A stretch of 64,000 bases of DNA, from NCBI RefSeq assembly GCF_044324785.1, contig NZ_CP172127.1. One strand, written 5' to 3'. The position numbers and the translations under genes were made by a program. The notes beneath the pieces were generated by a model. That model worked only from the letters and a program-made list of their open reading frames with translations. It made no database searches and was not told the origin of the DNA. How positions within the stretch are numbered: position 1 is the first letter of the stretch; the number at the start of each line of letters is the position of its first letter. This DNA is from Escherichia coli (GTDB lineage: Bacteria > Pseudomonadota > Gammaproteobacteria > Enterobacterales > Enterobacteriaceae). This document shows, one piece after another, positions 3,201 through 64,000 of this stretch.

Positions 3201-3756
3201 TGCTCTATTAGGAACACATCGTGGCGTAATGGACTTTGTTCATGATATCAAAACTCGTTTTGGTTCTTACTTTAAATACATTGAATTTTCTCCTATTCTT
3301 TCTTCTCAACTTATTTTGAATTTTGCGAATAATCCCAACGGTATAGATGCAGGGATGTTTGCTTCTCATGAAGTCGAAAATGTTTTTGGTGGGGGGTCTG
3401 TATGCTTAATTTCGCCTTTACTAGATTGCTATAAGGACTCTAATGGCACCATTAACCCTAAAATTATCGATGAGTTATTAAAAGCATCTAAATGGAAGAG
3501 AGGTGCCAGTGCTTATTATAACTTAGTCAATGGAACTCAACCGCGAGTTAATCCTGCTAAAATGCCAGCGCCATCTGTTAACCCAGTTGTTGTGAAGCAA
3601 ACGCCACAAACTACTTATGCACATCCTTTAAAGACAACTACGCAGCGTAAACTTGCTAAGTTAAAAAAAGACCCATATTTATTCTTTAATGATTCCCAAA
3701 AACCTCTTTTAAAAAGTTTACGATTGTTCTTCAAAAATACATCAAAGCTTAATTAA
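247..3756 (+). CDS. capsule region 2 (serotype-specific) large multidomain protein; candidate capsule polymerase/transferase with internal HAD-like motif
   Basis: 1169-aa ORF, ATG preceded by AAAGGAG; very AT-rich compared with kps region 1; HAD motif-I-like DLFDTLVERDF in mid-protein; sits between kpsS and the off-window region 3. Confidence 0.6.
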   Translation: MKSILYYLEPRTELNDKLFRYATLRSYLLPEIDGLRIADKSLDFKMIVSRTIYNKAKQNNLKMEGIDFIIIDEDVFEKNSYLKNINVSNELYHGNLNIKANEELKSIISACLPVDYKPDIIISYESPAPFFKEIFPSSLLLNAMFGIFSRAPFPAYGLLDPCGLYEYSYQYKYADKIRAEEISEEEKEVIKLLRRQSSRALAAYHPLKKYISSLYEKYDRLVVLACQVDNYFSYNSCTNYPSQYAMVEDVLSQVPSNIGVIVTEHGYKRQISDEQIESLNEKYSNFIYFSKKDVFTPSQFILPYVDGALSVSSSIGYQAALWQIPYFGLGKSQVDVLCSNTSLMSFVNDVEKGIKIDRDNILYVLLSKVHLSHKNDLFNGKSYLNKLKDLFNKFTSNCDEYEYFNTKKSIDEVRKDIICGNREWLLKKNFIDSKLVPEVDHLRVAMSHSKAISYDLFDTLVERDFVEPHELFNLIESRVRNELNNKNFPFYYVRRQAEIDLRRETRGEFEITLDEIYERFPRYFDLTLEQLEKIKNIEIDAEVELVHPKKEMVREFYFSQMICESVSIITDIYLSQNVIERILQKVKISGYNKLLVSAETKTRKHNGTIYPEYLKYIRDNFDINAGQALHVGDNKQADGDMAKKHGIKTYVFQKAIDNYKKSLIADILRSSINHPGISSSVINGLFANKYHAGHWFKINKESIFNADEYNYGYMAIGPLVVGFTQWLYRRVNKLGIKKLYFLSRDGWILKKTFDYFYPESSSGIKTEYLYSSRRTAMVASLRNIDDIIEVASQNFNARKLSDFLSTRFGLDVDTVKKSVLEKYNYKHDTIVSPYFEFGKLIGFLKDIHHTILSNAKNERESYIDYLRETGFENDCLNGGATVVDIGYSGSMQYYLKKILQCPCVNGFYFLTHHHSRDYFSNDHFEGFLQNLDDHKIAYRHGLNDHVFIFEAALSSPEGSLIKMEGKGQEREMIFLEAEEEIVRKNALLGTHRGVMDFVHDIKTRFGSYFKYIEFSPILSSQLILNFANNPNGIDAGMFASHEVENVFGGGSVCLISPLLDCYKDSNGTINPKIIDELLKASKWKRGASAYYNLVNGTQPRVNPAKMPAPSVNPVVVKQTPQTTYAHPLKTTTQRKLAKLKKDPYLFFNDSQKPLLKSLRLFFKNTSKLN

Positions 3757-37389: not shown

Positions 37390-38816
37390 TCATGCCAGTG
37401 GACTCATTACCCTCTGCCTGAGTAGTTCAAATCCTGCTCGACCATACATCTGGCGTTTCAGCATCTTCAGGCGATTTACATGACCTTCGACAACACCATT
37501 ACTCCAGTGACTACTGATTGCCTCACATATAGCTGCAGCATCAGCTTCCATCCCCGCCGCCACGCGCCGAAATTCTGCTGAACCGCTTTCGTGGACTCGA
37601 GTGAACCAACTGCTTAGCTGTGATTTATTTTGGGTTTTCAGAATACGGTAGAACTCGAGTGCCAGTTGCTGCGCTATTTTCAGCTCAGGTTCTTTTTCAC
37701 ACATCAGACTAATAAATCGGGAAGCATAATTTTCTTCATCCCTGGTTATTCTCCAGGGCATCAACCAGCGGCTTACCCGGGACACTGAAGGAAGTCTGAC
37801 GGCAGTAGTAACCGGTGGGTTCCAGCCTTTACGCCATTTGGCAACCGCATCCCTGACGATGGTTTCACTGCCTGTAAATCCCCGGGCCACCATTTCCCGC
37901 CATATCCGGCTGGCGTTATAATTACCACTTTCTCGTTGCTCTTTTAACCACTCCCTCCATGGGTCCAGAAGCCCTCGCTTTGGCGGTCGGGTTGACATTT
38001 CAGGGAATGTTCCTGAACGCACCCAGCGACTGACTGTCACACGCGACAGGCCTGTAATACGGGATATTTCCCTGAAACTACATCCCTTGTTATGCAGGGC
38101 CATAACCTCTGTCCAACGCTGATGCCGTTTTTTGCGGGTTTGTTGTTTTAGGCGTTCCGGACGACGGAGCGATGCTGCAGGCACAGATGGTTCTGGATCA
38201 GGTGATTTCTTTGGTGACAACTCACTGGCAACAAGACGTATCAGAGGTATATGTCTATACATCATTCGTTCAGGCGCATCGCCAATATTTTTTAGCAGAT
38301 GCCATCGATCGGCCACCTGTCTGGCCTGAGGTGCACCTTCACGTGCTGCTGTCGCATAGACTCCACTGCGATCACGCGAGACAATCTGTATTTCCGGATA
38401 TTTTCTGAACCAGGTCGCCAGCGTACGCTGATCACGGCCGGGAAGCAGGACGAGGGGACGGTGAGTATCAAGATTGACGATTAACGTACCGTAACGGTGG
38501 CCCCGATGCCACGCCCACTCATCAATACCGACATGAGGCGAGCCTGACTGTTTCGTCTCCGGGGTATTGATAACCCTGCGAAGGAGAGTATCAGCACTGC
38601 AACGGAGACCCACTGCCGTTGCTGCCCGTTTCCCGGCCTCACCTCCGGCGATTAATCCCAGTTGACGTTGTAAATTTTGTAACGCCTGTGAAGACTGTTG
38701 GTGTGAACCGGCGAAGGGAGCAAGCGACTCGGCAAAAATTTTACGTGAACAAGCCGGGTTACGGCAGTACCAGTGGCGGACAGAAAATACAAGCCATAGC
38801 GTATGTCCTGAGCAGG
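37390..38816 (-). CDS. ISL3-family-like transposase, 5' end truncated by IS2
   Basis: GIDEWAWHRGHRYGTLIVNLD DDE-domain start and C-terminal SNGVVEGHVNRLKMLKRQMYG motif typical of ISL3; track ORF start lies inside the IS2 terminus. Confidence 0.5.
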
Positions 38817-38827
38817 TGGATTTGCCC

Positions 38828-39733
38828 CTATATTTCCAGACACCTGTTATCACTTAACCCATTACTGGCCTGCTGCCGCAGATATTCCCGTGGCGAGCGA
38901 TAACCCAGTGCACTATGCGGATGCCATTCGTTATAATGCTCGAACGCCTCTGCAAGGTTCTTTGCTGCCGTTAACCCGTCTGGTTTAGGCATGATACTGA
39001 TGTAGTCACGCTTTATCGTTTTCACGAAGCTCTCTGCTATGCCGTTACTCTCCGGACTCCGCACCGCCGTGTTCTTCGGTTCAAGCCCCAACATCCGGGC
39101 AAACTGCCGTGTTTCATTAGCCCGGTAGCATGAACCATTATCCGTCAGCCACTCTACTGGAGACGCCGGAAGCTCGTTGCCGAAGCGGCGTTCCACCGCT
39201 CCTGGCATGACGTCCTGTACTGTTTCACTGTCGAAGCCGCCCGTAGTGACTGCCCAGTGCAGTGCCTCACGGTCACAGCAGTCCAGCGCGAACGTGACTC
39301 GCAGTTTTTCTCCGTTATCACAGCGGAACTCGAACCCGTCAGAGCACCATCGTTGATTGCTTTCTTTCACGGCCACTTTGCCAGTATGTGCCCGTTTCGA
39401 TGGCGGTACAGCGGTTTTTCGCTCAAGCAACAGCGCATTCTGGCGCATGATCCGGTAAACACGTTTGGCATTGATCGCAGGCATACCATCAAGTTCGGCC
39501 TGTCTGCGAAGCAGCGCCCATACCCGACGATAACCATACGTGGGCAGCTCTCCGATAACATGGTGTATACGGAGAAGCACATCCGTATCATCTGAGTGAC
39601 GGCTGCGGCGACCATCTTTCCAGTCATCGGTTCGTCTGAGAATTACGTGCAACTGCGCACGCGACACCCGGAGACAACGGCTGACTAAGCTTACTCCCCA
39701 TCCCCGGGCAATAAGGGCGCGTGCGCTATCCAC
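38828..39733 (-). CDS. insD: IS2 transposase OrfB (InsD)
   Basis: 301 aa recognised as IS2 InsD (DDE integrase core). Confidence 0.9.
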
Positions 39734-42868: not shown

Positions 42869-44131
42869 CTATTTTAATGGATTGTTAATCTTTGCATATT
42901 CAAACGGGCTGATACATTGTTCTCTGTTCGCACCCAGAAAATCTGCCCACCACTGTAGCATCAGTCGACGTTCTTCCAGATGTTCTGCTTTATGGATATA
43001 TGCAGCACGTACACCATTACGCTCCTGATGGCTCATCTGACGTTCCACAGCATCGCGGGACCACAAACCTGATTCAATCAATGCACTGCACGCCATCGCC
43101 CGGAATCCATGACCACAGACTTCCTGGGTTGTGTCATATCCCATCACCCTCAGGGCTTTATTTACAGTATTTTCACTGATCGGTTTACGCGGGTCATGTG
43201 CTCCCGTAAAGATCAGACCATTTTCACCAGCCCATGTCTGTAGTTCTGTCAGTATGGCTACAGCCTGTTTGCTGAGTGGCACAAGATGTGGTGTTCGCAT
43301 CTTGGAGCCCCGGTGTGAGTATTTTACGCCTGGCAGAGGTTCGCGTTCGGCTGGAATAGTCCACATGGCATTGTCAATATCAATTTCAGACCAGCGGGAA
43401 TATCTGAGTTCACTGGAACGAATAAAAACCAGTAAATTCAGCATAACTGCCAGTCGGGTGACAGGCTGACCTTTATAACCGTCAATACGCGACAGAAGTT
43501 CAGGCAGGCGTGAAAGATCCAGAGCAGGGCGATGCTGGCGTTTTACCGTGGTCAATGCACCAGCCATATCCAGAGCCGGGTTATATCTGATGATGCCAGA
43601 CTGTACGGCATAACGCATTACAGCAGATATTCTTTGCTGCAGACGACTGGCGATTTCATAAATTTGTTTTGCTTCTGCAGCACGAACAGGGATAAGCAGG
43701 TCCGGGGTATTGAGTGTTGTGATATCCCGGTTGCCGATAAAGGGGAAAACGTGTGTCTCGAGGCTTTTGATTACTTTATCGCTGTGTGATTGTGCCCATT
43801 GTTTATTACTGGCATGCCAGCGTCGTGCAATATGTTCAAAAGAGAGTTGTAAATCAGGGACTACTTTTTTAGCTCTTTTTTGTTCGCAAGGGTCAATCCC
43901 CTCTGAAATCAGTTTTCGGGCCTCATCCCGTTTTGTACGAGCTTCGGAGAGAGAAACTTCTGGATATACACCAAGTGCCAGAGTCTTCTCCTTACCCAGA
44001 ATACGATAACGGAGACGCCAGTAACGGGAACCATTAGGATGAACCAGCAGGAACATGCCAGCCCCGTCAGTGAGTTTATAAGCCTTGTCAGTGTGCTTTG
44101 CAGCCCGGATTTTTGCGTCAGTCAGTGCCAT
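42869..44131 (-). CDS. P4-type (IntA-like) tyrosine integrase
   Basis: 420 aa; MALTDAKIRAAKHTDKAYKLTDGAGMFLLVHPNGSRYWRLRYR N-terminus typical of P4-family integrases; next to tRNA-Phe 3'-end repeat. Confidence 0.85.
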   Translation of the reverse strand: MALTDAKIRAAKHTDKAYKLTDGAGMFLLVHPNGSRYWRLRYRILGKEKTLALGVYPEVSLSEARTKRDEARKLISEGIDPCEQKRAKKVVPDLQLSFEHIARRWHASNKQWAQSHSDKVIKSLETHVFPFIGNRDITTLNTPDLLIPVRAAEAKQIYEIASRLQQRISAVMRYAVQSGIIRYNPALDMAGALTTVKRQHRPALDLSRLPELLSRIDGYKGQPVTRLAVMLNLLVFIRSSELRYSRWSEIDIDNAMWTIPAEREPLPGVKYSHRGSKMRTPHLVPLSKQAVAILTELQTWAGENGLIFTGAHDPRKPISENTVNKALRVMGYDTTQEVCGHGFRAMACSALIESGLWSRDAVERQMSHQERNGVRAAYIHKAEHLEERRLMLQWWADFLGANREQCISPFEYAKINNPLK

Positions 44132-45252: not shown

Positions 45253-46122
45253 TTATGCCTTGCTGCTTTTGTTCACTGTGCTTGCCAGGGCTTCCGGGTA
45301 GTGTCTGGCAATAATATCATTAAGCCTGTCAACCAGCTCTGGTTTCCTGAACGTGATGTGCGCGGAGCCCTTCTTAAAGTATCTGATGCTGAACATCTCA
45401 TCTTCATAGTCCTCTTTACCCTGAACAGACTGGATGTGATCATCCAGATGAATGGTGATGTTTTCCCGGTTGTCGGGGATCGGTTTGCCGCTGAACAGGT
45501 GTAGCATTCTTTCCAGATCGGCAAGTCGATCTGCCTGTGGGCCGTTGTTCAGATGAAACCCCCACCGGTCCCACCTCACCAGGTTGTTGACGATAATTTT
45601 ACTGCCAAATTTGCAGGGGCAATTGGTTTTGTAATTCCAGCTCAGTCCCCTGAAGACGTTGATCACCCCTCGCTCAAACACCTCATCCTTATTCTGGTGC
45701 AGTTGTTCAAATGTGCTCAGAATGTTCGCTTCGCAGATTTCCGGAAAATTATCGTACTCCAGTGACCGGTACCATGTATCACGGGCTTGTGCATCCATTA
45801 ATGACAGCATCCCTGAACGTTGCATCAGGTCACGCCAGAGTTCGCGATCGAGATTCCGGGTGATGGCTTTCATTGCGGTTTCCGGTTTCTCCATCAGCCA
45901 GCAACCGCAGCGAAAATCCTGTTTCATGGCCCAGTCCCGGGCGGTTTTACCTCCAATACTTTCTGTCATTGCTGATATTTCAGCCAGTTGCCGGATAAGT
46001 GTGTCGATTTGCAGCAGTGTACTCTTTCGTACAGCCAGAATGTGGCGGATACTGGTTGAGCAAATAACGTCCGTATGCCCGGTGACCACTTCCGGACGGG
46101 AGGCTGTGATATCTGACATCAT
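45253..46122 (-). CDS. conserved island hypothetical protein (paralog of 14167-15009)
   Basis: 289 aa, near-identical to copy 1 over most of its length. Confidence 0.6.
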   Translation of the reverse strand: MMSDITASRPEVVTGHTDVICSTSIRHILAVRKSTLLQIDTLIRQLAEISAMTESIGGKTARDWAMKQDFRCGCWLMEKPETAMKAITRNLDRELWRDLMQRSGMLSLMDAQARDTWYRSLEYDNFPEICEANILSTFEQLHQNKDEVFERGVINVFRGLSWNYKTNCPCKFGSKIIVNNLVRWDRWGFHLNNGPQADRLADLERMLHLFSGKPIPDNRENITIHLDDHIQSVQGKEDYEDEMFSIRYFKKGSAHITFRKPELVDRLNDIIARHYPEALASTVNKSSKA

Positions 46123-49189: not shown

Positions 49190-50008
49190 TCAGCGCATGC
49201 TCTCCAGCAGCGTTTCTGCCATCACCCACAACGCCCGGTTGAGCTTAATGTCGGTATCGATGCTGTGAATGGCCCGGGTATGGATACGTTTTCCTCTGGC
49301 ACTGCGACCGGAAATCCCGCCTTTCAGCATATTTTCCTGGATGGTCTGATAAGCACTCCACAGGTCCTTACCGTAATCCTCCCGGCGTCGTGGCGTCAGA
49401 ATGTCGGTAGTGGTGACGGGCTGATGTTCATCACCATAACGGTAAGTCAGCGCCGCCTGTGCCAGCGCCTGGCGTGCCGGTGGCGGCAGGACCAGCGACT
49501 GCATGGCATCACGCTTTTCCTCAATCCGGTCAAACACGCCCACCACTTCGTAAGCACCTTCAATCACCCTGTCCACCACGTTTCCCCGGTGGGGCACCCG
49601 GACTTCTCCCAGCGACTGACCGCAGACCAAGCCATTGGTGCAGATGGCACGAAAATATCCGGGTAACATCTGATAGCTGGATGAACCGTCATGGGAGTTG
49701 AGCAGAATAATTTCAGGCACATGCTGACCGGTTATCTGTCCGGCCCGCCGCAGACGCAGCATATGTTTGGTATATTCCCGGCGGCTCTGGTCGCGCACAC
49801 GGGTCTGGCAGGCGAAGAACGGCTGAAAGCCTTCCCGCTGCAGATTTTCCAGGACGGTGATGGTGGGAATGTACGCATACCGTTCACTGCGGGAGGTGTG
49901 CCGGTCTTCTCCAAAAATACTCGGGACGTGGTACATCAGTTCTTCGCGTGTCAGTGGGCGCTCCCGACGGATCTGATTTACATGACCAAAACGACTGGCT
50001 AATTGCAT
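49190..50008 (-). CDS. DUF932-like protein (YfjQ/YafZ family), copy 2
   Basis: 272 aa paralog. Confidence 0.65.
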   Translation of the reverse strand: MQLASRFGHVNQIRRERPLTREELMYHVPSIFGEDRHTSRSERYAYIPTITVLENLQREGFQPFFACQTRVRDQSRREYTKHMLRLRRAGQITGQHVPEIILLNSHDGSSSYQMLPGYFRAICTNGLVCGQSLGEVRVPHRGNVVDRVIEGAYEVVGVFDRIEEKRDAMQSLVLPPPARQALAQAALTYRYGDEHQPVTTTDILTPRRREDYGKDLWSAYQTIQENMLKGGISGRSARGKRIHTRAIHSIDTDIKLNRALWVMAETLLESMR

Positions 50009-52044: not shown

Positions 52045-52929
52045 TCAGAACAGACGCTCCCACAGTGTGATCAGCAGGTGGATAATGCGGTCCCGGGCTT
52101 TACGCAGAAGCTGTAACATCCAGGCCGGAAAACTGAAACGGGCAACGGCGACGTCAAAACTTTTCCCGATGGTTTCACCAAAAGTCTGTTGTGCGTGTTT
52201 CTGGGCCTGTTCAGAGCGGTTTTCTCCCCGGATATGTGAATACACCGCGCTGGTTGCCTGTGGTGGCAGTGCGTGGATCATCAGCGACACAAACGCCGGA
52301 AGGTTCCAGCCGACAGGTGCAGCAACGGAGAGTACCGGAAATGATGAAGGGAACAGGGTTGCCACCCGGGCTGTCACCGTCGCCAGTGAGAGCGACTGCT
52401 GACGGGACGGGCATTTTTCTGTGGCATTCCATTCTTCAGCAGGAAACACGCGATCGGCATGGCTGAGAACAAACAGAAAACGCGAGGGATCTGCGCCTTC
52501 ATTCAGTAAAAACTGATGCATGGCAATATCAGCAGCATACGCACGTTCATCAGCCCGCAGGATCCAGATAATCAGATCCAGTTCCGGTAGCAGCTGACGA
52601 TAAAGTGTCCGGTATTCCTGATCATGCTGCGGTGTTTCACCAATGCCGGGCAGATCGACCAGCGTCATTCTGCGTTCACCGAACTGCAGGGTAAGACGAT
52701 GAGCCTGGCGGGTGCAGCCGTTCAGAGGATGTGTGGCGCAGATACGGGACTGAAAAATGGCATTACACAGACTGCTTTTGCCTGTTCCGGATTTACCCAT
52801 AATGCCAATCACGGGCTCGTAATGAATAACACTGTGGAGATGTTCAAGGATTTTCTGGCGAATTTCTTCAGGAAGAAACGTCAGATGTGATTTCACTTGT
52901 GCGGAGAGGGAAGAATGGCTGAATGACAT
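52045..52929 (-). CDS. YeeP/YfjP-family GTPase, second copy
   Basis: P-loop GIMGKSGTGKSSL; 294 aa. Confidence 0.75.
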   Translation of the reverse strand: MSFSHSSLSAQVKSHLTFLPEEIRQKILEHLHSVIHYEPVIGIMGKSGTGKSSLCNAIFQSRICATHPLNGCTRQAHRLTLQFGERRMTLVDLPGIGETPQHDQEYRTLYRQLLPELDLIIWILRADERAYAADIAMHQFLLNEGADPSRFLFVLSHADRVFPAEEWNATEKCPSRQQSLSLATVTARVATLFPSSFPVLSVAAPVGWNLPAFVSLMIHALPPQATSAVYSHIRGENRSEQAQKHAQQTFGETIGKSFDVAVARFSFPAWMLQLLRKARDRIIHLLITLWERLF

Positions 52930-57668: not shown

Positions 57669-58400
57669 ATGAATCAACCAATACACAATGATTACTGGTT
57701 ATCCCGTTTTGAAAGTATTCTCAACAGTGCCCTGGTGCAACACCGTGCCGTCTCGTTAATCCGGGTGGATTTACGTTTCCCTGAGCATATGCCTGTCACC
57801 ATCATGGATCCCGATCCGGATTCAGCGGTGATTTCTCGTTTTTTCGAATCCCTGAAAGCCAAAATTCAGGCTTACCAGCGGAAAAAACGACGTACCAACA
57901 AGCGTGTGCGTGCAACCACCCTGCATTATTTCTGGTGTCGGGAGTTTGGCAAGGAAAAAGGCAGGAAACATTATCACGTGATATTACTGCTCAACAAAGA
58001 TACCTGGTGCTCGCCAGGGGATTTCACCGTTCCTTCTTCGCTGGCGACGCTGATCCAACTGGCATGGTGTAGCGCTCTGCATCTTGAGCCCTGGCAGGGT
58101 AATGGACTGGTTCATTTTTCCAGGCGGACGCCTTTCCGTAAACCGGCATCATCTGATGCTCGCCCTTCTTCCGATGATACGCCTTTGTCGGGTGGATGTT
58201 CTGAAACCAGGAAGGCTTCAGACAAAAAGCCGGGTGAAGCCGCTGTTCTCTGGATCAAGCGTGGTGATGTGGAAGCGATGCAGAAAGCCATGGAGAGAGC
58301 CCGTTATCTCGTGAAGTATGAGACGAAGCAGCATGACGGTTCTGGTCAACGTAATTATGGTTGCAGCCGTGGAGCGGGGCGTCTACTGGATGGCAGGTGA
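57669..58400 (+). CDS. YagK-like inovirus Gp2-type protein (HUH replication-initiator-like)
   Basis: 243 aa; HUH motif HYHVILLL; SD GGAGA. Confidence 0.65.
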   Translation: MNQPIHNDYWLSRFESILNSALVQHRAVSLIRVDLRFPEHMPVTIMDPDPDSAVISRFFESLKAKIQAYQRKKRRTNKRVRATTLHYFWCREFGKEKGRKHYHVILLLNKDTWCSPGDFTVPSSLATLIQLAWCSALHLEPWQGNGLVHFSRRTPFRKPASSDARPSSDDTPLSGGCSETRKASDKKPGEAAVLWIKRGDVEAMQKAMERARYLVKYETKQHDGSGQRNYGCSRGAGRLLDGR

Positions 58401-58726: not shown

Positions 58727-60331
58727 ATGAATTCCGCTTATATGCAATCCTTGCAGACATCCCACCACTTCCCAGCTGATTTAACCTACAGATTATTTCC
58801 TAGTGAGCTTGCATATCTCATTGACGACTTATATGAAAGTACCCAACTTCCGCTGGAGCTCATTTTTAATACTGTACTGGCAACGCTCTCACTCTCCTGT
58901 CAGTCACTGGTTGACGTTGTTCATCCTCACACCAACATGCCGGAACCCTGCTCACTTTATCTGTTGGCAATCGCAGAGCCAGGCGCGGGAAAAACAACGA
59001 TAAACAGACTGGTGATGAACCCCTGTTACGAATTTGCCGATCGACTCATTCAACAATACGAAGAGAGAAACAAAGATTATAAGACTGAACTACAGATCTG
59101 GAATACCCGGCAGAAAGCGCTTGCTGCCAATTTAAGAAAGGCTGTTAACCGGGGGTATCCGGGGGAACAGGAAGAAGAGGCGCTGCGTAATCACGAAAGA
59201 AATAAACCGACACGTCCGGTTCGACCGAATTTTATCTATGAAGATGTTTCGCTTAAAGCGCTTGTGGAAGGGCTCAATGAACATCCTGAGGCAGGGGTTA
59301 TTTCTGACGAGGCGGTCACTTTTTTCAGAAGCTATCTGAAAAATTATCCGGGCCTGTTGAATAAAGCATGGAGTGGACAACCGTTTGATTTTGGACGGGC
59401 TGACGAGAAATACCATATCACGCCACGTCTGACATTTTCGTTAATGTCCCAGCCGGATGTCTTTACGAATTATATAAATAAAAATGACGTACTGGCGTGG
59501 GGAAGCGGATTTCTTTCCCGGTTTCTGTTCAGTCAGACCGGAAGTCCTTCCCGGGTACGGGATTATACGAGAGGCGAGTTCAGAACAAAACCAACCCTGG
59601 AGAAGTTTCATAAAAAGATTAACGGATTTCTGTTAAGCCATAACATTAATTCCCCCGGTATGAGCACCGAAAGGAAAACATTAAAACTTGCAAAGAAAGC
59701 GTTGGGGGAGTGGCAGGAAAACCAGATTAAGATTGAAAGAAAAGCGCTTGCAGGAGGGGAGTGGGAACACATCAGAGATATTGTTCTGAAAGCAGGTTCT
59801 AATATACTGAGGATAGCTGGAATATTCACCTGCTATTGCTATAAAGATGCTGAGGAAATTGAATCAATTGCGCTTTTTAAAGCTATGCATCTCATGGACT
59901 GGTATCTGGAGGAGGCGAGCACAATATTTTATCCCATGTCTGCACGATGCCAGTTTGAACAGGATGCCTGTGAACTGTATGCATGGATTATGACCCGAAT
60001 AAGGCAGAATAATTGGCGTGCTATCAGGAAAACAGACATTGAAAGATATGGTCCCAATCGTCTGAGAAGAGCAGAAAAACTTACACCTGTACTCAATCAG
60101 TTAATCGCTCAAAATTATTTCCGTATCATCAAGATGCGATCGCATCAGGCACTTTATGTTTCTGCTCTTGATAATAATGGTTACATCCTTCCTTTCGGCG
60201 CAATGTCTTACGAACCGTTTGATATTGTTCCACCCCAGTATAACCATAATGCGAAAACATATTCCGTTGTTATTCCACCGGCATTAATTCAGTCATTTAC
60301 ACCTGATTCCTCAGCTTACACCTTATTTTAA
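58727..60331 (+). CDS. YfjI-like island protein with Walker A-like P-loop
   Basis: 534 aa; AEPGAGKTT motif; strong SD GAAGGAGG. Confidence 0.6.
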   Translation: MNSAYMQSLQTSHHFPADLTYRLFPSELAYLIDDLYESTQLPLELIFNTVLATLSLSCQSLVDVVHPHTNMPEPCSLYLLAIAEPGAGKTTINRLVMNPCYEFADRLIQQYEERNKDYKTELQIWNTRQKALAANLRKAVNRGYPGEQEEEALRNHERNKPTRPVRPNFIYEDVSLKALVEGLNEHPEAGVISDEAVTFFRSYLKNYPGLLNKAWSGQPFDFGRADEKYHITPRLTFSLMSQPDVFTNYINKNDVLAWGSGFLSRFLFSQTGSPSRVRDYTRGEFRTKPTLEKFHKKINGFLLSHNINSPGMSTERKTLKLAKKALGEWQENQIKIERKALAGGEWEHIRDIVLKAGSNILRIAGIFTCYCYKDAEEIESIALFKAMHLMDWYLEEASTIFYPMSARCQFEQDACELYAWIMTRIRQNNWRAIRKTDIERYGPNRLRRAEKLTPVLNQLIAQNYFRIIKMRSHQALYVSALDNNGYILPFGAMSYEPFDIVPPQYNHNAKTYSVVIPPALIQSFTPDSSAYTLF

Positions 60332-60930: not shown

Positions 60931-61045
60931 ACTCACTCCCTTTTTGATATAATCTCTATTGTTATTTACTTCCTGTCTTTACTCACTCCCTTTTTCATAC
61001 AATCTCTATTGTTATTTACTTCCTGTCTTTACTCACTCTCTATCT
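60931..61045. repeat. 50-bp tandem direct repeat (about 2.3 units)
   Basis: ACTCACTCCCTTTTTGATATAATCTCTATTGTTATTTACTTCCTGTCTTT repeated immediately with two mismatches, then a partial third unit. Confidence 0.6.
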
Positions 61046-61920
61046 TTACGATTATATTCACTCTATCGTTACACATTCCATTAGTATTACTCTTGTTATC
61101 GTATTCATTCCATCCCTCAATCATATTTACTGTAACTCATATGATGTTCAGGTAAGTTATTCTCTACCATTCTACTGATGATATTCATCTGTTCTCATTT
61201 TCACTGAAACAGCAATTAATTTTAATCTTATCCATCATGAGCTGTATTTTCTTAACAATGGTTGTTTATCTGAAGTGTTTTAACTATTCTGATGAACATC
61301 AATTCTTTTGTCATTACTGATTAACCGAATGTTTACTTTTTGATAAGGTATCCATGATTCTGTAACGATTAACAGAGCTGGATAAACAATGGAATTGACA
61401 GGAGAGATTCCTGATTATGTTTGTTCTGGGTTGTATTATCTAAGATGCAGGATGAAAATCATGTCAGTGGTATTTTTTATTCTGCTATCGTGAGCCGTGA
61501 ATGTTCATGTCCTTAAGAACAGATTGAATGAGCGCATATAAGTTTATTGCATTGGCCTTGTACACAGTTTTTACAACCACTGAGAGCAAGTTTGTAGTTT
61601 ATGATGTGATTGGTCGCAATATGTTTCTTAACCTTCTGGACGTGGTGTTTTATCGCGTATTTACAGTATTTCGTGATGTTTTATTGAGTCTGTATTTTCT
61701 TTACTCCTCGTTTATCTCATCTCTTTAGCTAATACCATCAGATAATCCATTTCTTTCTGCATAATGCTGCGTATCGTTAATAACCCGTCGTATCCATTCT
61801 GCTACAGCATGCCTGATAAATACCATCTGTAAGTTATTACCGTTTTAGATCTGATTATGAGCGAAAGCATTAATTCGTTCACAGAGCTTAAAACATCATT
61901 AACTTTCAGGAGTCATCAAC

Positions 61921-62487
61921 ATGCCTAAATCTTACACACCAAACTGGTTTTTTACCGCTTTACTTGACAATCACATCAATCAAATGATGGCACGCTATTC
62001 CTGCCTGCGGGCCTTACGGATGGATTTCTTCTACAGGAAAGATACGCCTGATTTCTTACAACCTGATCATCGCTGGCTTGAATTGCAGTTGCGTATGCTG
62101 CTGGAGCAGGTGGAACAATTTGAAAATATCGTTGGTTTCTTCTGGGTGATTGAATGGACGGCTGATCATGGTTTTCATGCGCATGTGGTTTTCTGGATCG
62201 ATCGTCAGAGGGTTAAAAAAATATATCCCTTTGCGGAGCGGATAGCGGAATGCTGGCGGTCTATTACGCATAACAGCGGTTCGGCACACCGCTGTACATA
62301 TCAGCCGCATTATACATACAACATCAACATTCCTGTGCGCCACAACGATCCTGAAAGCATCGATAATATTCGCGGTGCCCTGCATTATCTGGCAAAAGAA
62401 GAGCAAAAAGACGGGCTGTGTGCCTACGGCTGCAATGAAGTTCCTGAACGTCCTGCTGCAGGGCGTCCTCGTAAGCCTCACTTCTGA
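61921..62487 (+). CDS. YfjJ-like inovirus Gp2-type protein (HUH replication-initiator-like)
   Basis: 188 aa; HUH motif FHAHVVFWI; SD AGGAG. Confidence 0.7.
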   Translation: MPKSYTPNWFFTALLDNHINQMMARYSCLRALRMDFFYRKDTPDFLQPDHRWLELQLRMLLEQVEQFENIVGFFWVIEWTADHGFHAHVVFWIDRQRVKKIYPFAERIAECWRSITHNSGSAHRCTYQPHYTYNINIPVRHNDPESIDNIRGALHYLAKEEQKDGLCAYGCNEVPERPAAGRPRKPHF

Positions 62488-62744
62488 AGCTTAAATCCTG
62501 AGCTTCCTGTCCTGGAAACACTCCGTCGGTAAAAACTTACCGCCTTGCTTAATGATGTGAACTGAAGTCAACGGAGATCATTCACTCTGAACCACATCCG
62601 GTGTTCTGTCCCTTGTCGGTGACCTGATCTTCCCGTTCTGCCCCGGTTCTTCACTTATTCCATCAACCCCATCCGCAAACCATAACACGTCAGCTTATTC
62701 ACGGGCAGGACGCATTGTGGGCTGCGCATAACGGAGCATATCTT

Positions 62745-63305
62745 ATGAATGCTATCCCTTATTTCGACTATAGCCTGGCCCCCTTCTGGCCATCTTATCA
62801 GAACAAAGTCATCGGCGTCCTTGAGCGTGCGCTGCGTGAGCAGTCCGGCTCACGGATACGGCGGATCCTGCTTCGTCTGCCGTGTGAATATGACAATACC
62901 TTCAACAGCAGAACGACCTGGTTTGGTATGGATTTTATCGAAACCGTCAGTGCGCTGATGAATGCAACACCCGGACGTGACCTTTGCTGGCTCCTGACCC
63001 GTCATCCTGAAAAACCGGAATACCATGTGGTGCTGTGCGTCAGACAGGAGTATTTCGACGGCCCCGAACTGGATCGGTTGATTCTGGATGCCTGGAGTAA
63101 CGTGCTGGGTTTCGCGTCACCAGGTGAAGCAAAGCCGTACCAGAAGCAGATCACCCGGGATGTGGTACTGGATCGCCGGTCACCGGACTGCGAAGCCCTG
63201 TTTAAGGACCTTATCTGGGCGTTCAGTGATTTCGCCCGCGATCGCCGTGGAGTGCGCGATCCGGAAGCCCGTTGCCTCGCCGGTAATCCCGGTTGGCAGT
63301 GCTGA
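62745..63305 (+). CDS. YagK/YfjJ-related protein with partial HUH motif
   Basis: Track ORF starts at TTG 62715; ATG at 62745 after ACGGAG; motif PEYHVVLCV has one His only. Confidence 0.5.
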   Translation: MNAIPYFDYSLAPFWPSYQNKVIGVLERALREQSGSRIRRILLRLPCEYDNTFNSRTTWFGMDFIETVSALMNATPGRDLCWLLTRHPEKPEYHVVLCVRQEYFDGPELDRLILDAWSNVLGFASPGEAKPYQKQITRDVVLDRRSPDCEALFKDLIWAFSDFARDRRGVRDPEARCLAGNPGWQC

Positions 63306-63373
63306 AAGCAGCATTCCATCCCATACCTCGTATTACCCCATTCTTCATCAATCTCACAGAGGATATTCTGACC

Positions 63374-63607
63374 ATGTTGACCACAATAAGCCACGACAGC
63401 GTGTTGCTGCGTGCCGACGATCCCCTGATCGACATGAACTACATCACCAGTTTCACCGGCATGACCGATAAATGGTTTTACAGGCTGATCAGTGAAGGTC
63501 ATTTCCCTAAACCCATCAAACTGGGGCGCAGCAGCCGCTGGTACAAAAGTGAAGTGGAGCAGTGGATGCAGCAGCGAATTGAGGAATCACGAGGAGCAGC
63601 AGCATGA
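63374..63607 (+). CDS. alpA: AlpA-family transcriptional regulator, second copy
   Basis: ITSFTGMTDKWFYRLISEGHFPKPIKLGRSSRWYKSEVEQW; track ORF trimmed to MLTTISH after GAGGA. Confidence 0.8.
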   Translation: MLTTISHDSVLLRADDPLIDMNYITSFTGMTDKWFYRLISEGHFPKPIKLGRSSRWYKSEVEQWMQQRIEESRGAAA

Positions 63608-63696
63608 AACGTGTTGTAATGCCAGTACGCTGGCAATGTGCGAAATGCCGGCGCTGGTATTGTGGAAATCAGCCCTGTCCCTGGTGCTGGCGCTGA
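63604..63696 (+). CDS. candidate 30-aa Cys-rich small ORF translationally coupled to alpA
   Basis: ATGA overlap with alpA stop; MKRVVMPVRWQCAKCRRWYCGNQPCPWCWR has two CxxC pairs. Confidence 0.3.
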   Translation: MKRVVMPVRWQCAKCRRWYCGNQPCPWCWR

Positions 63697-64000
63697 CAAC
63701 TCCCGCTCATCTTTCTGCTGGCACCCTCTGGCCAGCCAACTGTTTGTCATCATTTCCTGACTGATTCGTCATTCCCTTCGTCCCGCCAGTCACTGGTGTT
63801 TGTATCGTACCGTGCCGGTGTCGATGTGCGCTTTCCGTGTGTCTGGTCTGCACCGGCTTAACAAAATTCAACGGGGATAAAATAGTGCAAATAACCGAAG
63901 CCTTACTTTCAGCGCCGGGGGAAATCCGGCGTTTTGTTCAGCAGGCGGTGGACCACTGGCCAAATCTGTTGGCATTTCACTTCACGCTCCATTCGGCAGA

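Follow-up and report, generated by a model that had tools for sequence, protein, structure and literature searches.

Introduction

Whether the short, Cys-rich open reading frame (ORF) that begins on the stop codon of an alpA-like gene in an Escherichia coli genomic island encodes a protein, and whether such a protein would act together with AlpA, is the question raised by this locus. The original prediction, which was drawn from the letters of the window (the whole 64,000-nucleotide stretch of E. coli DNA analyzed, contig NZ_CP172127.1), described a 30-codon ORF that overlaps the end of alpA and carries two CxxC pairs, interpreted it as a small zinc-ribbon peptide translated together with AlpA, and granted that it could equally be a chance ORF. 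Here the ORF, designated ZR, is examined by comparative analysis, and the protein that it would encode is considered in relation to AlpA, to the surrounding island, and to known zinc-ribbon families.

The ZR reading frame and its position

The alpA-like gene lies on the plus strand at 63374..63607 and encodes a 77-aa MerR-like winged-helix excisionase/regulator of the Pfam family Phage_AlpA (PF05930), to which the product scores 41.5 bits against a cut-off of 21. In Foldseek searches, the best matches of the AlphaFold model of this protein are RdfS (8dgl) and the GIsul2 excisionase 8c3t (TM 0.85 on target), and the model also resembles BldC and Pukovnik Xis.

ZR occupies positions 63604..63696 of the same strand and consists of 30 codons and a stop, from the ATG at 63604-63606 to the TGA at 63694-63696. 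Its ATG and the TGA of alpA (63605-63607) have two bases in common, forming an ATGA overlap at 63604..63607 that is typical of translational coupling, and a Shine-Dalgarno-like GAGGAG (63591..63596, plus strand) is situated within the alpA codons R-G-A, 7 nt 5' of the ZR start. The predicted product, MKRVVMPVRWQCAKCRRWYCGNQPCPWCWR (30 aa), contains seven basic and no acidic residues, and its five Cys residues (C12, C15, C20, C25, and C28) form two CxxC pairs and a central Cys. The coordinates, the overlap with the alpA stop codon, and the two CxxC pairs that had been described were thus all confirmed in the sequence. A 24-codon core, P7-R30 (63622..63693, plus strand), includes all five Cys codons (at 63637, 63646, 63661, 63676, and 63685) and carries the motif W-x-C-x2-C-x-R-x-Y-C-G-x2-P-C-P-x-C; the ZR allele of the window is essentially this bare core. 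Taken by itself, ZR is unremarkable: ORFs of 20 aa or longer are common here, with 40 of them overlapping the final 2.5 kb of the window. The case for a gene is hence a comparative one.

Conservation and coding signal

Conservation of the frame downstream of alpA in other islands had been suggested as a check, with a lack of conservation in homologous loci as the refuting result. A locus search in which AlpA served as the sole query, with one genome per species, yielded 44 loci, and the region 3' of alpA was then inspected. The core was found at this position in an Escherichia-type MAG, Enterobacteriaceae RIT691, Citrobacter-like isolates, Superficieibacter, Yokenella, Siccibacter, Kosakonia, Hafnia paralvei, Tenebrionibacter, Rosenbergiella, and Serratia microhaemolytica, so that the frame proves to be conserved in approximately ten enterobacterial genera. 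Its presence was also assessed against AlpA similarity. At AlpA identities to the query of 66% or more there are 18 loci; in 13 of these the core is present, in two (Tatumella L007 and Entomohabitans L014) it is recognizable as decayed remnants, and in three it is absent. It is likewise absent 3' of less closely related AlpA genes (Gilliamella, Pectobacterium, and others). In all 18 AlpA-seeded loci that carry it, the 72-nt core aligns without gaps; these loci provide 15 unique sequences with nucleotide identities of 51-99% (median 64%). Invariant residues of the core are W10, C12, R17, Y19, C20, P24, C25, P26, and C28. A single departure at the invariant Trp, W10C (PVRCQC), has been observed in the otherwise intact copy of E. 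coli Res13-Lact-PEB14-36 (L174).

The distribution of changes across the core follows the ZR codons. Across genera, variable columns number 14, 14, and 23 of 24 at the first, second, and third codon positions, with entropies of 0.48, 0.50, and 1.03, respectively, and the pN/pS ratio is 0.34 in the ZR frame versus 1.28 and 1.08 in the other two sense frames. The signal is not merely an effect of the search motif, because the 13 codons outside the motif still give a pN/pS of 0.67, while the 11 motif codons combine a pS of 0.75 with almost no amino-acid change; TGT and TGC alternate at every Cys codon, which indicates that synonymous change in the motif codons is near saturation. Among the AlpA-seeded E. 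coli copies, variable sites are distributed 1/5/13 over the three codon positions, and pN/pS is 0.17 in the ZR frame versus 8.1 and 0.75 in the other sense frames. These codon-position and pN/pS statistics show purifying selection on the protein read from the ZR frame, between genera as well as among E. coli copies.

Other reading frames were considered as the possible source of the pattern. An antisense gene sharing the wobble positions of ZR is ruled out by stop codons in eight of the 15 sequences, and the remaining two antisense frames show ratios of at least 1. An alternative plus-strand frame, in which PGAP places 'hypothetical proteins' of 41-52 aa in some genomes and which extends over 90 aa without a stop in the window (63492..63764), was also rejected as a real gene, because its pN/pS reaches 1.28 between genera and 8.1 among E. 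coli copies and its sequence is not conserved outside E. coli. Selection acting in the ZR frame and a core free of indels across genera lead to rejection of the chance-ORF alternative left standing in the original prediction. Judged from these comparisons, ZR is a real, conserved, and almost never annotated protein-coding gene.

Linkage to alpA and the start region

A wider survey was performed with a degenerate-codon DNA pattern for W.C..C.R.YCG..PCP.C, which was scanned over IMG/VR and metagenomes. This motif-only scan recovered one locus in IMG/VR and at least 120 in metagenomes; all matches listed are true ZR family members, and they comprise at least 44 distinct core variants. An alpA homolog lies directly 5' on the same strand in 119 of the 121 copies among the matches listed. 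By an initial count, 73 of these 119 alpA-linked copies (again among the matches listed) have the ATGA overlap; in the other copies, recomputed gene pairs place the ZR start at offsets of -7, +2, +3, +5, or +20 from the alpA stop, including a TGATG arrangement. A G-rich, Shine-Dalgarno-like box is present 5-9 nt 5' of the ZR start in all locus types, including those with the +20-nt gap. The locus therefore displays the architecture of a coupled gene pair, in which the start codon overlaps or abuts the upstream stop and the Shine-Dalgarno box lies inside the upstream gene, and this arrangement suggests that ZR may be translated by coupling to alpA. The tails that follow the core vary freely at the C terminus, giving versions of 30, 37, 42, 44, 50, and 57 aa.

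A distinct start region characterizes the Kosakonia-type copies (L013 from Kosakonia arachidis, L068, L142, L152, L166, and L097), in which the Cys core is both kept and varying. No in-frame ATG, GTG, or TTG is found near alpA in these copies, with the exception of a TTG in L166; instead, a CTG overlaps the alpA TGA (CTGA) and is followed by ATC. The absence of a canonical start makes non-canonical initiation or re-initiation possible. One of these copies, L097, has an internal stop.

Distribution and annotation

Of 5426 complete E. coli genomes, 2579 (~48%) contain the 161-bp stretch that holds ZR, at 3462 places in all. Allele classes were defined from an evenly spaced sample of 60 E. coli records, for which representatives of each class were fetched. 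Classes with an intact core account for approximately 43 of the 60 records, including ST131 and O157:H7, and approximately 14 of the 60 carry a 26-bp deletion allele (CFT073 type) that destroys the ZR frame; a few sampled records are truncated, and frameshifted copies also exist. ZR is hence dispensable in part of the E. coli population. The deletion, which corresponds to positions 63622-63647 of the window and is represented by L003 and L178 (CFT073), eliminates the first CxxC and causes a frameshift; the DNA on either side remains highly similar.

In every record inspected, the ZR frame is without RefSeq/PGAP annotation. PGAP instead calls ORFs in the alternative plus-strand frame, mostly in the 26-bp deletion alleles, as 'hypothetical proteins' of 41-52 aa (WP_000831911.1, WP_001342704.1, and WP_001439809.1); these calls (L003:3265-3423, L178:545-670, and L175:577-729) are homologous to approximately 63604-63760 of the window and look spurious, because the pN/pS of that frame exceeds 1 and it is not conserved outside E. 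coli. Protein databases hold few relatives. Ten proteins were recovered when 5.8 billion protein clusters were searched with a profile that had a 44-aa sequence as its first row, and 24 relatives when an HMM was run exhaustively over 1.84 billion representative proteins; most of these database relatives are C-terminally extended, frameshifted, or fused versions that are long enough for gene callers. A tblastn search of a ZR family member against 50,697 phage records returned nothing with E < 2, so that, as far as this collection goes, ZR is not a gene of phages. No curated family in Pfam, NCBIfam, PHROG, or PADLOC names ZR, and the peptide string was not found in a literature search. It was likewise not encountered in the accessible parts of the supplements of the O157:H7 Sakai ribosome-profiling and Enterobacteriaceae microproteome studies (PMC5597208 and PMC11188072) or in the available portion of bioRxiv 10.1101/511675. 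The literature search also found nothing on PF11682, DUF3279, or DUF7828, nor on AlpA in connection with small zinc proteins.

Probable zinc-ribbon character

The reading of the peptide as a mini zinc ribbon gains support from its motif spacing, from profile similarity to Zn_ribbon_11, and from a modeled knuckle with a beta-hairpin. The family motif, W-x-C-x2-C-x3-Y-C-G-x3-C-P-x-C, has the spacing of the Pfam domain Zn_ribbon_11 (PF11682), and 21 of 32 ZR family members match this profile at E ≤ 1. The PF11682 cut-off of 24 bits is passed by the distant stand-alone members P0014 (30.9 bits) and P0022 (30.0 bits), the latter of which sits right after alpA in the locus inspected. Close relatives of the window peptide reach 10-23 bits, below that cut-off, and the window peptide itself gives no match to PF11682 even at E ≤ 10 and so lies outside the cut-off as well. 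The knuckle spacing of ZR is also that of 24 distinct Zn_ribbon_11 domains taken from 27 neighboring DUF7828 proteins, and an hhalign comparison of ZR with the Zn_ribbon_11 domain of these neighbors gave a probability of 84% and an E-value of 7.2e-6 over 27 ungapped columns.

The pattern of Cys replacement bears on the putative metal site. In distant ZR members C20 is replaced by G or S and C12, C15, C25, and C28 are kept, which suggests a C4 site; the likely zinc ligands, as judged from the alignment, are these four residues, with C20 conserved in the subfamily and dispensable in distant members. AlphaFold2, supplied with the family alignment, predicts a beta-hairpin (strands 9-11 and 18-20) between the CxxC pairs with a pLDDT of 76, and the ZR part modeled within a natural-style AlpA fusion reaches a pLDDT of 80-90. 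The top Foldseek neighbors of the 30-aa model are zinc ribbons (bL32, zf-RanBP, and XPA), at non-significant E-values above 3. Searches with the window peptide gave a chance-level DUF5402 match in Pfam and no match in NCBIfam, PHROGs, or PADLOC; the best hit of a PDB sequence profile search was a Tramtrack fragment (E 0.064), and the PDB thus contains no sequence relative. On the basis of motif and model, the ZR protein is probably zinc-binding.

Island context

ZR resides in an island backbone with a P4-type tyrosine integrase (42869..44131, minus strand; Arm-DNA-bind_3, Phage_int_M, and Phage_integrase domains) approximately 19 kb away. Backbone genes on the minus strand encode a DUF4942 protein (45253..46122), a DUF932 protein (49190..50008), and a YfjP-like GTPase (52045..52929), and those on the plus strand a YagK/YfjJ protein (57669..58400) and a DUF3987 YfjI-like protein (58727..60331). 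Just outside the integrase end of the island are an ISL3-family transposase ORF (37390..38853, minus strand) and an adjoining IS3-family rve transposase ORF (38828..39733, minus strand). ARAGORN detected no tRNA in the whole window.

The immediate neighborhood of ZR forms a module. Upstream of alpA lies a Gp2/YagK-YfjJ-like gene (61921..62487, plus strand) with sub-threshold REP_ORF2-G2P and YagK_YfjJ_C matches, whose relatives RefSeq names 'inovirus-type Gp2 protein' or 'YagK/YfjJ domain-containing protein'. Downstream, a gene with a GTG start (63887..64000, plus strand) runs off the window; its RefSeq relatives are called 'hypothetical' or 'UCP030791 family putative phage-derived protein'. 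Across 105 loci, a UCP030791-type gene follows ZR in 62, and in 29 others a gene for a DUF7828+Zn_ribbon_11 protein does so. The order Gp2-like, AlpA, ZR is kept in the distant loci L170 and L171, and distant loci also retain the fuller module, which runs from the GTPase through the Gp2/YagK-YfjJ-like protein, AlpA, and ZR to a DUF7828 or UCP030791 protein. Non-E. coli loci (L006, L009-L018, L170, and L172) have one to three small DUF7828 and/or Zn_ribbon_11 genes 3' of ZR, where E. coli-type loci have a UCP030791-family gene instead; the former genes imply that the island module carries several paralogous copies of the zinc-ribbon motif. In L070 and L150, the ZR frame reads through into the UCP030791-type downstream gene, and in P0017 into a DUF7828-type one, producing long fusion ORFs that may be accidental.

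The 190 nt that separate ZR from the following gene (63697-63886) contain blocks that are conserved among E. coli loci (TTTCCTGACTGATTCGTCATTCC; GTCTGCACCGG...ACAAAATTCAAC), a weak terminator-like hairpin (63784-63798), and a sigma-70-like match (63858-63886) that abuts the GTG at 63887. An Rfam search of 61000-64000 returned only two chance snoRNA-like matches, and the RNA fold of 63570-63720 has a z-score of -2.0, which is modest and not compelling.

Fusions and the relationship with AlpA

Natural fusions connect the two proteins. In-frame AlpA-ZR fusions occur in an E. coli-type lineage on several independent metagenome contigs (L085, L054, L159, L161, and L120) and in a divergent lineage as P0018, a 96-aa protein (L172:30-320) with Phage_AlpA on record; deletion fusions in which the C-terminal helix of AlpA is lost also occur (P0013 and P0015). 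The presence of such fusions in at least two lineages suggests that AlpA and ZR work together, and favors action in the same complex rather than antagonism. The AlphaFold model of a fused AlpA+ZR has a pTM of 0.52 and a low-confidence linker, so it neither supports nor refutes a contact between the two parts, and a PDB structure search returned no solved structure spanning both. In O157:H7, alpA is cut short by a TAG that lies 45 nt ahead of the usual stop, and ZR is intact (L177, strain WS4202, and 11 other sampled EHEC-type records); in these same records PGAP calls a 198-nt alpA gene or none, and a GGGGGG box precedes ZR. The intact ZR beside a broken alpA implies that ZR need not depend on an intact AlpA.

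Taken with moderate confidence, the explanation preferred here is that ZR is a genuine gene for a translationally coupled, basic C4 zinc ribbon that serves as an accessory subunit of the AlpA-type excisionase/regulator. According to this proposal, the alpA-like gene and ZR would be transcribed together, and ZR would be translated by coupling, through the ATG over the alpA stop codon and the Shine-Dalgarno box in the 3' end of alpA. The core would adopt a small C4 zinc-ribbon fold (knuckle, beta-hairpin, knuckle), and the protein would act as a detachable accessory subunit of the winged-helix excisionase/regulator of the genomic-island backbone, where it could contribute either a second contact with nucleic acid or a contact with protein, for example in oligomerization or toward the integrase. 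Of this proposal, selection on the protein, linkage to alpA with overlapping or abutting ends, the Zn_ribbon_11-like motif, and the existence of natural fusions are shown, and the binding of zinc, translational coupling, a physical partnership of ZR with AlpA, and the activity itself are inferred.

A broader and more tentative proposition is that the AlpA-type excisionases/regulators of a large enterobacterial island class are two-part proteins, in which the coupled, sometimes fused, zinc-ribbon peptide would be required for DNA binding, oligomerization, or integrase contact and would thereby control island excision or gene activation. Such a component would have been overlooked on account of a length too small for annotation, though it is present in about half of the sequenced E. 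coli genomes.

Alternative explanations, taken in falling order of probability, assign ZR the role of an independent co-expressed effector, of a leader or upstream ORF, or of a chance or non-coding element. The first, which is unlikely and nevertheless the best surviving of the three, holds that ZR is a real zinc-ribbon mini-protein that is independent of AlpA and merely co-expressed with it, acting, for instance, as a Lar-like anti-restriction or host-takeover factor or as a regulator of the downstream genes. The intact ZR of O157:H7 strains with a truncated alpA is in keeping with such a role, as is the company of antirestriction, DUF932, and similar early-function genes in the island backbone; moreover, the related Zn_ribbon_11 domain is borne by neighboring DUF7828 proteins and not by AlpA. 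One family member even shows a weak match to Lar_restr_allev (E 0.052), but this match is far below significance, and no PADLOC or PHROG match accompanies it. Near-absolute adjacency to alpA (119 of 121 copies among the matches listed), together with the stop/start overlap, also argues against independence, and at least two independent in-frame AlpA-ZR fusions would not be expected of proteins with unrelated functions.

That ZR is a cis-regulatory leader or upstream ORF, in which the act of translation controls the downstream gene or the stability of the alpA mRNA, is improbable. Its shortness and its position between two genes would suit this role, as would a C-terminal tail and stop position that vary freely (30, 37, 42, 50, and 57 aa), and the modest fold (z -2.0) and the weak terminator-like hairpin at 63784-63798 could be read in the same sense. 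It is the amino acids, however, and not just the open frame that are conserved, with an invariant W, an invariant Y, and four to five Cys residues retained under saturated synonymous change; the motif is shared with a protein domain, no Rfam match was found, and ZR is kept while the downstream gene changes between locus types.

Least probable is that the frame is open only by chance, whether as a random ORF or within a conserved element that does not code (a DNA site or an RNA structure): many short ORFs arise by chance, RefSeq leaves ZR without annotation, and the flanking DNA is still conserved in the 26-bp deletion allele, but third-position variation is concentrated in the ZR frame alone (pN/pS 0.34 across genera and 0.17 in E. 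coli), no indel occurs in 72 nt over approximately ten genera, the other five frames are excluded, and the peptide is kept while its offset to alpA shifts from -1 to +20.

Comparison with known systems and implications

Among described families, PF11682 (Zn_ribbon_11, 'Probable zinc-ribbon') is the closest to ZR. The two have an identical spacing, W-x-C-x2-C-x3-Y-x-G-x3-C-x2-C, and the Pfam domain is encoded in the neighborhood of ZR itself, typically as the C-terminal domain of DUF7828 island proteins. Unlike PF11682, ZR is a stand-alone protein of 30-60 aa that is strongly basic, carries the extra conserved Cys C20 and a P-C-P motif, and is encoded directly after alpA. ZR is therefore not new in kind, but a small zinc ribbon with kinship to a domain that Pfam already lists.

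To our knowledge, the AlpA/Xis-type recombination directionality factors (RDFs) and regulators that have been described act as single small winged-helix proteins. The upstream partner belongs to this group (P4 Vis/CP4-57 AlpA family; RdfS 8dgl and GIsul2 8c3t) by both Pfam assignment and fold, and ZR adjoins alpA in 119 of 121 copies among the matches listed and is sometimes fused to it. Neither the solved structures covered by the PDB search nor the literature search revealed a zinc-ribbon extension or partner peptide of AlpA/Xis.

Small zinc-finger regulators of phages and satellites, such as P2 Ogr/P4 Delta, Mu Com, and TraR/DksA-like proteins, are likewise short, basic, Cys4 zinc-binding proteins that are encoded by mobile elements and act on transcription or translation. 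They are at least twice as long as ZR and differ in Cys spacing, and we know of none (Ogr, Delta, Com, or TraR/DksA-like) that is coupled to an AlpA gene. Pfam, NCBIfam, PHROG, and PDB profile searches found no sequence or profile similarity between ZR and this group.

ZR also resembles the overlooked small proteins of bacteria (PMC5597208, PMC11188072, and bioRxiv 10.1101/511675), in that it has no more than 50 codons, is missed by annotation pipelines, and can be recognized by its conservation and by a Shine-Dalgarno box with a start codon; unlike the ribosome-profiled examples, the evidence for ZR is purely comparative.

ZR is, even so, a widespread and essentially unannotated gene with a plausible, testable partner. 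It provides the orphan Pfam domain Zn_ribbon_11 with a minimal and genetically tractable representative for which a candidate partner is clear. If ZR does partner AlpA-type RDFs/regulators, studies of island excision, stability, and regulation in which alpA is cloned alone may omit a needed component.
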